Below, piece by piece: positions 2,098 to 15,748 of a stretch of 24,173 nucleotides of DNA. Both the position numbers and the translations under genes were made by a program. Numbering within the stretch: position 1 is the stretch's first letter; the number at the start of each line of letters is the position of its first letter. This DNA comes from a virus (taxonomy: Duplodnaviria; Caudoviricetes): the IMG/VR virus record IMGVR_UViG_3300016472_000194, positions 1 to 24,173 of that record; one strand, given 5' to 3'. The notes beneath the pieces were generated by a model. That model saw nothing but the letters and a program-made list of their open reading frames with translations. It made no database searches and was not told where the DNA came from.

Positions 2098-5000
2098 ATG
2101 GCATGGATTTTGTTTCTCGTTCTGCTCGCCGCCTCGCCAGCGTGGGGCCTGCGGCTGCAAGGCGTCGGCTTTGAGGGGCAAAGCTGCTCGCAGTACACGC
2201 TGACCAGCGGCACGACCGGGTGTTACGGAACGCCGACCTACGACACGTCGACGCCGATCACCGGCGGCGCATCGCTGTACTGCGATGCGGCGGAGGGTCA
2301 GCTCATATACAATCCGCCAACGTCGACGAGCACCGGGAAGCTCTGGGTGCAGGCGAATTTCCGCGCCGATGCCATGCCGAGCGCCAACAACGCGCCGGTC
2401 ATCTCGCACGTCGGCGCGCTCGGGGGCACCGTGTCCGCACGCCTCACGGCCAGCGGAACGATCGAGTGCACGTCTTCTTCATCCGGTGGCCCGACCCTCT
2501 CCGGGTCGGTCGCTGTTTCCACCGGCGTGGAGTACACCGTCACCATCGAGATTGACTATGGCGGCACCAACGCGCCCGCAGTCTGCTACCTCAACGGCGT
2601 CAGCTTTGCGACCGGCACCACGCGCATGGTCGACACCGCTGGCGCCCGTGCCTGCATAACCAGCACCGGCACCTGGGGCACCGGCGCGCAAGTCGCGGTC
2701 GATGACGTCATCGTCCAAAACGACAGCGGTAGCTCGGGAAACACCATCCCGCACGTCGGCGAGTACATCACCGAGCTGCGACCCAACAGCACAGCCTCGG
2801 GAGCGTGTACCACCGGCGCTTTCGGAGACGTCGATGACGTGCCGTTCGACACGGGCACGAAATGCGAGTTGGACACCAACTCGACCACTGTGACTTGGGG
2901 ATTGCAGGACATCACAGTCCCGGCTGGCGACACCATCACGGTGGTGCAAGCCAACAGCTTGATCCGAGCCGATACCGCCGCACCTTCGGCGGCAAACATC
3001 ATCCTCGACAGCGGCGGGACGACGATCACCACGTCGGCAACGACCGACGTCAACACCTACCGCACGCACGATGGGACTACACCCGGAACGCTGCCGCTCA
3101 TCACGCGATACACCGACCCTGCGGATTCTGCGGCATGGACCGACGCCGACATCGACGCGCTCAAGTTGCGCTTCGACGGCACGGACACTGCGCCGGACTT
3201 CTGGATCGCCGAGGCTTGGGTTAGCGTCTCCGCGTACCCGGCGCCGCCAACCTCGACGCCGACCAGCACCCCAACCGTCACCCCGACGCCGACGCCGACG
3301 CAAACGCCTACCAACACCCCGACAAGCACACCGACTCAGACTCCGACGTCGACGCCCACCAACACGCCAACGGCTACGCCGACGCAAACGCCTACCAACA
3401 CCCCGACAAGCACGCCAACGGCTACCCCGACGGATACCCCGACAGCGACGCCTACGAATACCCAGACGCTCACGCCAACGGATACCCCGATAGCGACGCC
3501 GACGAATACCCCGACGGTCACGCCAACGCCGACGCCGACGCCAACCCCTACGCCTACGTCGACGCAGGCGTTCCTGGAGTTTGTCGCGTCCGAATCCGAG
3601 CCGTTCCGTGTGCTGGAACTCACCCAGGGCGTGTGCTGCGCCAGCAAGGCCGGGTATGATTGCGAAGCGCCGGTGAGGTCGTGCGACGACGATGGCGACT
3701 GTACCGTTGCACCGTACTCGGTATGCTCTGGGTACTACGAGGACTCGGCTTATTACAGCGGCAACGACGACGGCAGCGTGTGCGATTCGCTGCTATTTTT
3801 CCCATTCACGACATTTGCCGGCGGCGTCTCCGGGCAGGGCACGAACATTGCCAGATTAGCCTGGGATACTTCAGCGCTTCCCGACGATGCGGTCGTCACT
3901 GGCGCTGAACTCGAAGCCGTTTACAGCGACTTTGTCACGAGTTATGGCCCAGAAGGTGCAACGCTGAACGCAAAGTTTTTCGACCCAGAGTCTAATCCCC
4001 CGATCGGTTGCGTCTCGGCGGCTGCGACAAGTTGCACCTGTGACGATGGCTTGTGGGTCGCGCAAATGCCAGAGGATGCCATCAAGGTTTCGGTTCGTTC
4101 GTTCGTCGTCAATCCGACTCCAACGCCGTTTGTTGCTACGGCATTTCGTCATGTGGTTGGCATTGATACCCAAGGGCAGACCGGGGTTTTGGCGAAGCCA
4201 GAACCGCTTGGGGCTCGGCTCAGGTGGCGAGCGCGCAACTCAACCGTCGCCCCCGGCCCACGCCTGCGCGTGTTCTACCAGTCCGCCAACCCGACCGACA
4301 CGCCGCTGCCGACGCGCACGACCACGCCGACCCGCACGCATACCGCCACCGGCACACGCCCGTTCACCTCGACCCCGACGCAAACGCCGACGATGACTCC
4401 GACCGAGACACCGGACGCGAGCACGCCAACCCCGACCGCGACACCTACCCCGACGCCGACGAAGAACCCAGCGATCACGCCCGCGCCGATCGCCTCGACT
4501 TGGAACGCCGACGCGGGAAGCGACGCGCGCTGCGTCGTCTCGCCGCTGCCGGTCCCTGGCGCCGTACAGCCGGGGCTCTACCTCGCCGCAGTCTACGTGG
4601 AGGGCGACGTCCAGGTCGTCGAGAATCCGCTTTGGAACGAGATTGCCGAATGCCAAACATCGGACTCCGACATGAGGCTCGTCGTCCTGTCGCGTGAGTA
4701 CCGATACGGCGAGCCCACGGAAGAGTTCCTTGCGTTCCGCTTCGCCGAGGAAGCTCAACACGTCTGCGTCGTGACGCACTGGGTCGGCCCTGATCCTGGC
4801 TGGCCTATCCGCATCGCCGAGTCCGGTAGCGAGGGTGTCTCCTGCGTCGCCACGGCGACCAGCGTGGAGCACACTGCGTTGGGCGTCGACGTCGACTTCC
4901 CACACAACTCCGTCGCTAGCATGTTCGCCGTTCCGCCGCTGACCGGAGGCGCGGCATGGTCAGGGTACACGCCCGATGTGTCTACGGTCGTCCAACGCGA

Positions 5001-5988
5001 AGTGCTCGACGCGAACGACCCGAACGCGCCGGTCGACTTCAACGGGCAGTCGATGCTGGAGTCCGTCGGGGTGCCGTTCAGCAACGACGCGCCGATCGAC
5101 GACATCACGGCGACCTACTCCGGCGCGGCAGACGACGGCATCGCGGCGCAGGTCGCGCTGTTCGCGGTCGACACCCCGGCGCCAACGTGGACGCCGACGC
5201 ATACGCCGACCCGCACCGCGACGCATACGCCGACGCCTACGGATACCCCGACGGCTACACCAACGGACACGCCGACCGCGACGCCGACCTCCACGCCCAC
5301 GGCAACCCCAACCGATACCCCGACCGCGACCCCAACGAACACGCCGACGCACACCCCTACCAACACGCCCACGGCTACGCCCACGAGCACCCCGACCGAC
5401 ACGCCGACGGAAACCCCAACCCCCACCGAAACCCCAACGGCTACGCCCACTGAGACGCCGACTCAGACGCCAACGGCTACACCGACGAGCACTCCCACGA
5501 GTACGCCGACGGCAACGCCTACGGACACTCCTACCGAGACACCAACCAGCACCCCGACGGACACCCCGACCGCAACGCCTACCTCGACTCCCACGGCGAC
5601 CCCGACGGCGACGCCCACTGAGACCGCCACGGCGACTCCAACGGCAACACCGACCAGCACGCCAACCGAGACACCCACGGGCACGCCGACTTCGACGCCG
5701 ACCGCTACGCCGACGCCTACGGCCACGAGCACTCCGACCGCGACGCCTACGCCGACCGCAACGCATACCGCTACCGCGACGCCAACCCCGACGGCGACCG
5801 CGACGGCCACGGCATCGCCTACGCCGACGAGCGCGCTGCACTCCGTGCTCTACGTCCGTCAGCCGCGCGTTTTGTCCGTCGACGCGCCGACCGAGCTGGT
5901 GCAACGTCGCCCGCAGTACCTCACCGCGCCGCTGCCTCGCGTGCTGCGCCACGGATCGCCGAGGGTGCTGGTGGTCGAGCACGACTGA
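2098..5988 (+). CDS. 1296-aa secreted-type multidomain protein with Thr/Pro linkers; putative fibre/adhesin
   Basis: GGAGG RBS and ATG 2098; signal peptide [18 protein letters not shown]-terminal LamG/ConA-like beta region; middle domain with [19 protein letters not shown] (DNRLRE-like); third beta-sandwich; three TP linkers; followed by an adaptor-like gene. Confidence 0.75.
3238..3564 (+). repeat. Thr/Pro (TPTx)n coding repeat, linker 1
   Basis: About 109 aa of [12 protein letters not shown] units; contains an exact 38-bp duplication at 3292-3329 and 3376-3413. Confidence 0.95.
4288..4485 (+). repeat. Thr/Pro coding repeat, linker 2
   Basis: [15 protein letters not shown]...[12 protein letters not shown]. 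Confidence 0.85.
5173..5832 (+). repeat. Thr/Pro (TPTx)n coding repeat, linker 3
   Basis: About 220 aa of [16 protein letters not shown] units with a 12-nt period and varied synonymous codons. Confidence 0.97.
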
Positions 5989-6030
5989 TTGCTAAATTGC
6001 CCGCTTGCGCCGGATCGGCTACGCGCAAGC
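5988..6030 (+). promoter_or_regulatory. Motif ATTGCTAAATTGC plus 8-bp inverted repeat (copy 1); candidate promoter/operator
   Basis: 13-mer identical to 11843-11855; GCTTGCGC (6003-6010) / GCGCAAGC (6023-6030) lies directly before ATG 6032. Confidence 0.6.
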
Positions 6031-14955: not shown

Positions 14956-15245
14956 TGTCCGTGCCTCTACCGGGCAAGTATCGCGTCGTCCGCCGCTCAC
15001 GCGGCGTGCGCGCCGCTGTTGGGGAGGTGGTCGACTCGTCGGCCATCTCCCCCCAGCTCTTGCTCGCCCTCGTTCGGACTCGCGTGCTCGTTCGCGTCGC
15101 CGGCGAGCCCGCACCGGCGCCGCAGCCGGAATCCATGGCCGTCGTCGAGCCAGCACCCGAGCCGACGCCGCCGCCTACGCCAGATCAAACATTCGCGCCG
15201 TCGTCTGCCCCGAAGCCGTGGCAGCCCAAGAAAGGCAAGAAGTGA
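14955..15245 (+). CDS. Small post-capsid protein with a Pro-rich, basic tail
   Basis: TAATG overlap with the capsid stop; 96 aa; occupies the typical slot for packaging/head accessory proteins. Confidence 0.65.
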   Translation: MSVPLPGKYRVVRRSRGVRAAVGEVVDSSAISPQLLLALVRTRVLVRVAGEPAPAPQPESMAVVEPAPEPTPPPTPDQTFAPSSAPKPWQPKKGKK

Positions 15246-15748
15246 TGAGACACCTACTGCTCGCCCTCCTCCTGCTCGTCGGCTGCGCCGATGTGGCGAC
15301 GGCACAACAGCGAAAGCTGACAGGCTCGCGCTACTTCGACACGTTGACCGGGACGACCATCACCGCGACGACGGCGACGGCGACGACGGCAACGGTCGCT
15401 CACCAGCGATTTACCAACAACGCATCCCTCACGGCGGCAGACGTCAACTTGACGGCGGCGCAGATCCAGGCTGCATCGGTGTTCCCGGTGTCGACCACGG
15501 CAAACGCGGTTGACGTCGACTTTGGCGACGATGCGGCGCTATCCGCGTCCGACGTCGGCAGCCGCAAAACGTTCATTGTCACCGCTGGCGGCACGAACGC
15601 GCTGACCGTCACCGCCGGTGCGTCCGGTGTGACGACGGTCACGACTCTGAACACGCTCGGCACGACATGCGAGGACGTGGGCGACGTCGTTGAGTGCATC
15701 GTCACCAGTACCACGACTGCAACCTGCGTGCGCACTTGCGCGGACTAA
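15245..15748 (+). CDS. Head-module protein with a signal peptide/lipobox; putative head fibre or decoration
   Basis: TGATG overlap; MRHLLLALLLLVG|C lipobox or ATA|QQ SPase I site; Thr-rich stalk, then a small beta domain with four Cys. Confidence 0.7.
   Translation: MRHLLLALLLLVGCADVATAQQRKLTGSRYFDTLTGTTITATTATATTATVAHQRFTNNASLTAADVNLTAAQIQAASVFPVSTTANAVDVDFGDDAALSASDVGSRKTFIVTAGGTNALTVTAGASGVTTVTTLNTLGTTCEDVGDVVECIVTSTTTATCVRTCAD

Follow-up and report, generated by a model that had tools for sequence, protein, structure and literature searches.

The DNA stretch analyzed here (the window) is a complete virus record of 24,173 bases, IMGVR_UViG_3300016472_000194, that encodes an uncultured, long-tailed phage. 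Three of its late genes, which we call A, B, and D, specify proteins with predicted Sec signal peptides (leaders) and paired cysteines (Cys), and their likeness to a fiber, a fiber-tail adaptor, and a head accessory protein holds up, as do the export signals and the Cys pairing. Since proteins of fiber, adaptor, and spike type carry leaders and paired Cys here and the core proteins lack leaders, the three are likely folded outside the cytoplasm. These are known folds in an unusual route, and the pattern is real, conserved, and surprising. The three genes, their leaderless neighbors C and E, and the parts of A are as follows; lengths are in amino acids (aa), and linkers are rich in proline and threonine (Pro/Thr).

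2098..5988, + strand: gene A, 1296 aa, leader, three globular modules split by Pro/Thr linkers, and an arginine/valine/proline-rich C-terminal tail
2098..2148, + strand: predicted Sec leader of A, aa 1-17, cleavage after residue 15 or 17, score 4.07
2149..3243, + strand: A module 1, aa 18-382, 8 Cys, homologous to the N-terminal module of Hiyaa gp13 and Delta gp31
3244..3567, + strand: A Pro/Thr linker 1, 76% Pro plus Thr, 0 Cys
3568..4287, + strand: A module 2, 10 Cys, a Cys-rich knot and then a weak DNRLRE-like stretch (NF033679, expect value [E] 0.069, far below cut-off)
4288..4497, + strand: A Pro/Thr linker 2, 63% Pro plus Thr
4498..5187, + strand: A module 3, 4 Cys
5188..5838, + strand: A Pro/Thr linker 3, 72% Pro plus Thr
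5839..5985, + strand: A C-terminal tail, 49 aa, 7 arginines (Arg), two R-V-L-x-V motifs (pattern picked after seeing the sequences)
6032..6499, + strand: gene B, 155 aa, leader aa 1-20 and an immunoglobulin-like sandwich, GP4 gp77-like fold
6492..6914, + strand: gene C, 140 aa, leaderless, phrog_1084, overlaps B
15245..15748, + strand: gene D, 167 aa, leader aa 1-20, short threonine-rich stalk, knob at about aa 53-167
15755..16192, + strand: gene E, 145 aa, leaderless, adjoins D here and in locus L004 of a relative

Export signals

Leaders were called with a home-made rule for the n, h, and c regions, which was written after the three leaders had been seen and was given its cut-off of 3.0 later. 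By this rule A (4.07) and D (4.62) carry Sec leaders of the signal peptidase I type, and B (2.99) falls just below the cut-off. The background rate of the rule is 0.6% (27 of 4575 pseudo-N-termini taken from 18 window proteins without leaders). The other 23 of the 26 window genes remain below the cut-off, 22 of them unscored and gene 17261 at 2.59, which agrees with the statement in the initial annotation that the core capsid, neck, and tube proteins have no leader. The coordinates and leaders that it gave for A, B, and D were likewise recovered, with the endings AWG↓, AQA↓, and ATA↓ present (arrows mark predicted cleavage). In each of the three proteins the leader is the most hydrophobic 19-residue window.

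Gene A starts at ATG 2098, with GGAGG 8 nucleotides upstream, and its leader ends in SPA↓WG or AWG↓L. Gene B starts at ATG 6032, where a clear ribosome-binding site is not seen, and its leader ends in AQA↓Q. The ATG of D at 15245 overlaps the stop codon of the preceding gene (TGATG), and the leader ends in ATA↓Q. In-frame open reading frames (ORFs) extend upstream of A, B, and D to 1972, 6005, and 14642, and the family alignments favor the starts at 6032 for B and 15245 for D over the longer ORFs. True starts downstream of the hydrophobic segments had also been considered in the initial annotation. In neither A nor B do the first 60 codons contain a start past that segment, the only alternatives being TTG at codon 5 of A and codon 4 of B. 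D offers two, GTG 17 and TTG 34, and a ribosome-binding site is visible at neither.

Relatives keep the leaders. The D family comprises 40 proteins, including the window's own, from a phmmer-type search; 39 pass the rule, and the lone failure has a long N-terminal extension ahead of a leader-like stretch. The B alignment has 37 rows, drawn from two near relatives and a profile search (38 hits), from which a fragment, a member carrying a Pro/Thr insert, and two long false hits of the fibronectin type were removed. Here 32 of 37 pass, and the failures are B itself, one protein at 2.97, two long-extended ones, and one that is apparently truncated. The leader was within both the D and the B query, a possible bias, and most B hits matched via the mature part. 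Both families retain the n, h, and c regions and A-x-A down to 24-35% identity, and D residues A18 and A20 are at least 90% conserved in the 40-row alignment. An alternative ending of D, LVG↓C, had been read as a possible lipobox; we rejected D as a lipoprotein, as Cys occupies that column in only 2 of 40 rows by eye, LVGC itself is confined to the window's own protein, and A-x-A is kept instead. Judged from these sequences, it is highly probable that A, B, and D are exported by Sec and cleaved by signal peptidase I.

Cysteine pairing

Several Cys are indeed present in A, B, and D, as first pointed out, but their amount does not discriminate (1.7% in A versus 3.8% in the leaderless protein encoded at 13552); it is the pairing that is special. 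The mature Cys count is even in 39 of 40 D proteins and in 37 of 37 B proteins. In D the Cys columns co-occur as 151/161, 111/148, and 142/165, with 0 singles, and in B as 111/116 (0 singles), 61/138 (2), and 42/141 (3). Because relatives are not independent, Cys changes were counted on trees: the two columns of a pair changed 4 and 4, 3 and 3, and 1 and 1 times in D, and 3 and 3, 5 and 6, and 6 and 5 times in B. The Cys of A lie in its modules (8, 10, and 4), with none in the linkers. Such pairing is good evidence for intrachain disulfides, the putative bonds being C142-C165 and C151-C161 in D and C42-C141 and C111-C116 in B.

Gene order in relatives

D keeps its head-region slot in five of seven other loci. 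A D relative lies after the capsid gene in L002, L006, and L007, before E and the neck genes in L004, and in L003 before a head-like module of another kind. L005 and L008 do not extend far enough for placement. In L010 the capsid gene is present and a D match was not found. The capsid ORF of L006 (L006:1864-2880) has a further ATG upstream, from which the protein would gain a hydrophobic stretch at its N-terminus; this may be a wrong start.

A profile search with B over four virus records returned one copy of the window phage, one weak match, and two clear B genes, in records G001 and G002. G001 has an A-like gene, B, and C in tandem in the terminase-portal interval, and this A-like gene has a leader, a Cys-rich domain, a Pro/Thr linker, and an Arg/Pro-rich tail. 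In G002 the pair B and C lies ahead of the terminase and has no A next to it. B followed by C amid the packaging genes is thus seen in all three phages (window phage, G001, and G002), and C is leaderless in all three. The core genes of G001 and G002 are unscored by the leader rule.

Further leaders occur in both records. The tail region of G001 (L024, reverse strand) includes, downstream of a 1232-aa tail gene that lacks a leader, a fiber-like gene of 693 aa whose product has a leader and 10 Cys. In G002 a post-capsid gene (L025:1141-1605) with a leader, a short Pro/Thr repeat, and 4 Cys occupies the slot held by leaderless E in the window; no BLAST match was found between this gene and E. In this lineage, then, leaders recur in accessory slots, and which slots carry them varies.

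Folds of the accessory proteins

Module 1 of A belongs by sequence to the Hiyaa gp13/phrog_6368 module (28% over 380 aa; tblastn E 4e-4 and 6e-4 for Hiyaa gp13 and Delta gp31; phrog_6368 E 9e-8), which bears out the fiber likeness first proposed and suggests that A is a fiber. The mature start of A aligns with residue 3 of Hiyaa gp13, which is leaderless. Module 3 had no match in family-library searches, the sole Pfam row being spurious. In the tail, the motif R-[TV]-[LIM]-x-[VLI], a pattern chosen post hoc, occurs twice in the last 49 residues of A; it is also found once at 503, once in the tail of the G001 A-like protein, once near the end of GP4 gp79, and 0 times in 6,248 residues of other window proteins. 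The tail is a candidate adaptor-docking strand, as a lead only.

The modeled fold of B matches the fiber-tail adaptor GP4 gp77 and places B in PF23148 by fold. By sequence B stays below the Pfam cut-off: it gives no hit itself, 2 of 37 relatives do (best E 0.012), and hhalign gives E 0.044. The resemblance to a fiber adaptor holds at the level of fold. The fold is also common to amylase, CopC, and S-layer domains, and the model is a soluble sandwich rather than a membrane barrel. On the model B appears fiber-tail-adaptor-like, and C may be its cytoplasmic docking partner. A, B, and C form a three-gene cassette, of which the leaderless C was absent from the set first described. In one B relative (P0070), a Pro/Thr linker is inserted between the two Cys of the disulfide loop.

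The knob of D folds like the C-terminal knob of the Pa223 capsid spike, in a structural match that spans residues 53-167 only; between leader and knob the model has only about 30 low-confidence residues. Like B, D is modeled as a soluble fold (a knob), not a membrane barrel. The model points to a spike or fiber knob rather than cement, which refines the earlier proposal of a head decoration, and the likeness to a head accessory stands; the cement-like gene is probably the leaderless 13552. In 13 of 43 D-like proteins the residues that follow the cleavage site form a motif similar to the beginning of a protein that G002 encodes, without a leader, after its capsid gene; this likeness ranks 6 of 13,045 windows with a pattern picked after the fact, and is a lead only. 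The G002 gene (L025:619-1113) encodes 164 aa, and its first 13 residues are those that resemble the motif. E has no family match.

Proposed route and alternatives

We propose that A, B, and D would be co-expressed late with the head genes, as their positions and overlapping stop-start codons suggest, and that the host would export them by Sec and cleave them with signal peptidase I. They would then fold oxidatively and acquire disulfides in the host envelope, a step we consider very likely. Docking on the finished particle would follow once lysis mixes envelope and cytoplasm, D binding the capsid via its freed N-terminus, the C-terminal strand of A binding B, and B binding the particle via leaderless C or a neck protein. 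That at least one of the three joins the particle is likely, though each contact is a guess. The result would be flexible appendages, probably glycan-binding, for reversible host attachment. Through export the proteins would gain disulfides and perhaps glycans along the Pro/Thr linkers, and they would be kept away from proheads during assembly. The mechanism as a whole, from late expression through export and oxidation to docking at lysis, is one toward which we lean. That the lineage finishes its particle across the inner membrane, with spikes, fibers, and adaptor stored, oxidized, and perhaps glycosylated in the envelope before they snap on at lysis, seems to us evenly balanced, and the same balance holds for exported B and cytoplasmic C as a split docking unit, which is part of that idea.

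Two alternatives also accept export, and thus differ from this route only in the last step. In the first, which is unlikely, the three proteins never reach the particle, and virion folds are reused as host-envelope or surface proteins for lysogenic conversion (as with lambda Lom and Bor), receptor masking, or superinfection exclusion. Leaders, disulfides, and Pro/Thr linkers would all suit envelope proteins, A opens the late region, preceded by about 60 non-coding bases, and the breadth of the B fold fits as well. The gene order speaks for the particle instead: D is TGATG-coupled to the gene following the capsid gene and keeps its head-region slot, and B with leaderless C stays inside the packaging genes in every phage compared. 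The leader is also the most hydrophobic segment of each protein, the lipobox is not conserved, and neither B nor D is modeled as a barrel. Furthermore, pattern scans of one GTDB genome per species, which are insensitive, confirmed no D or B relative bar one 21-residue match.

In the second, the proteins are stored in the envelope and freed at lysis as decoys or as primers of neighboring cells, with loose or no particle binding. Late position and export would suit this equally, and a capsid-binding domain has not been demonstrated in D. An adaptor fold kept beside a leaderless partner, however, makes little sense for free decoys, and the N-terminal motif shared by mature D and the leaderless G002 gene, lead though it is, also argues for the particle; we regard decoys as quite improbable.

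Least probable of all, and by our estimate very doubtful, is that the leaders go unused, through a downstream start or because the proteins stay cytoplasmic or membrane-tethered, with normal assembly and Cys that oxidize after lysis as in Milano. In its favor, a ribosome-binding site is not clear for B, whose score is 2.99, and D has two alternative start codons; against it, A and B lack any downstream start in 60 codons, the n/h/c pattern with A-x-A persists to low identity, and the leader of A has been added exactly ahead of the natural start of its leaderless homologue. Paired Cys are no proof of export, since the Milano core proteins are disulfide-linked and have many disulfides (PMC10491603).

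Tailed-phage assembly is taught as wholly cytoplasmic, and a phage gene with a signal peptide is often assumed to be non-structural. If the proteins do become part of the particle, the chemistry of the host envelope (disulfide formation and glycosylation) is available to outer parts of the virion, a final assembly step takes place at or after lysis, and lysates could in principle dress particles in trans. Finishing across the membrane, if true, would amount to a second, extracytoplasmic stage of tailed-phage morphogenesis. An adaptor fold with leader and disulfide loop beside a leaderless partner offers a family-level marker.

Genome layout

The sequence of the record is present in freshwater metagenome runs, all from one study. 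Contigs of three runs (two of them possibly its source) have 0 differing letters or indels over 1500-16500, and because they agree the leaders are not assembly errors. B also lies on a 47 kb contig. By PHROG and Pfam a DnaC-like loader comes first, then the terminases, portal, and onward, all on the + strand.

6914 and 7455, + strand: small and large terminases (PHROG/Pfam)
8897, + strand: portal (PHROG/Pfam)
10496, + strand: MuF (PHROG/Pfam)
11965, + strand: XkdF protease (PHROG/Pfam)
12392-13540, + strand: scaffold-like (PHROG/Pfam)
13552-13950, + strand: small cement-like protein (PHROG, weak Pfam)
13966, + strand: major capsid protein (PHROG/Pfam)
6914..14955, + strand: head module from terminases to major capsid protein, no leaders
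16192..24060, + strand: neck, terminator, tube, chaperone, tape measure, and distal tail genes, no leaders
about 17716, + strand: tube (PHROG/Pfam)
19819, + strand: tape measure (PHROG/Pfam)

Terminase, portal, HK97-type capsid, neck, tube, and tape measure in one block identify a tailed double-stranded DNA phage; no sheath gene was found within the 24,173-base window, and by gene layout the phage is a siphophage. The leaderless 13552-13950 protein has 5 Cys (3.8%), its relatives have 2-3, and its labels are scaffolding in PHROG and a weak Pfam match (E 0.092) to the XM1 gp53 minor capsid protein. The scaffold-like gene has an inserted segment at about aa 41-153 (phrog_2859) that is unaligned in the G001 homologue, and in G002 protease and scaffold are fused as one 589-aa gene. 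Between MuF and protease (11379-11843) are three small ORFs, one with paired Cys motifs. A nine-A run within 19430-19470, near the end of the chaperone gene (18957-19499), likely marks a programmed frameshift of the tail chaperone, and an ORF rich in Cys continues in another frame to 19819.

Comparison with known systems

GP4 gp77 (PDB 8JOU chain D; PF23148) has the same fold as B, with sequence similarity below significance. However, gp77 is leaderless and GP4 is a podophage, whereas B has a leader, an N-terminal arm, and a Cys-x4-Cys loop. Among the systems closest to D are Pa223 gp52 (PDB 9NY6), which has a C-terminal knob like that of D, and the XD-type domains of CBA120 TSP4. The model of Pa223 gp52 starts at residue 2; the protein attaches to the capsid through residues 2-41 and has a triple beta-helix. 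D differs in its leader, its short stalk of variable length, and its paired Cys. The homologues of A module 1, Hiyaa gp13 (a "minor tail protein" of a Streptomyces phage) and gp31 of Brevundimonas phage Delta, lie in virion gene blocks and have a virion role by annotation only. Both are leaderless, Pro/Thr linkers of the A type were not seen in their sequences, and they have few Cys (0 in Delta gp31 and 5 in the 1110 aa of Hiyaa gp13).

Lambda Lom and Bor, Sec-exported and signal-arrest-release (SAR) endolysins, and filamentous coat proteins are phage proteins that use host Sec. Lom forms a barrel in the outer membrane, Bor is a lipoprotein, the endolysins act as enzymes, and assembly of filamentous phages takes place at the membrane; to our knowledge none of these is an accessory of a cytoplasmically built head-tail particle. 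A barrel or lipid anchor of the Lom/Bor type does not apply to B and D, both being modeled as soluble and the D lipobox not being conserved.

Another case is gp085-gp087 of Cellulophaga phage phi18:3, which have leader-like N-termini and are annotated as structural from tandem mass spectrometry (MS/MS); that phage belongs to the Pachyviridae and has another host, and the proteins have few Cys (0, 1, and 3). In the A1002 gp41 fiber, about 30 N-terminal residues are missing in the map, for which the authors name possible proteolysis (PMC13730344); these residues could be a cleaved signal peptide. We found no paper on exported accessory proteins of tailed phages in a search whose coverage excluded subscription papers and supplements. 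The window contributes a siphophage example, an adaptor fold that is predicted to be exported and sits beside a partner lacking a leader, and Cys pairing checked on trees.

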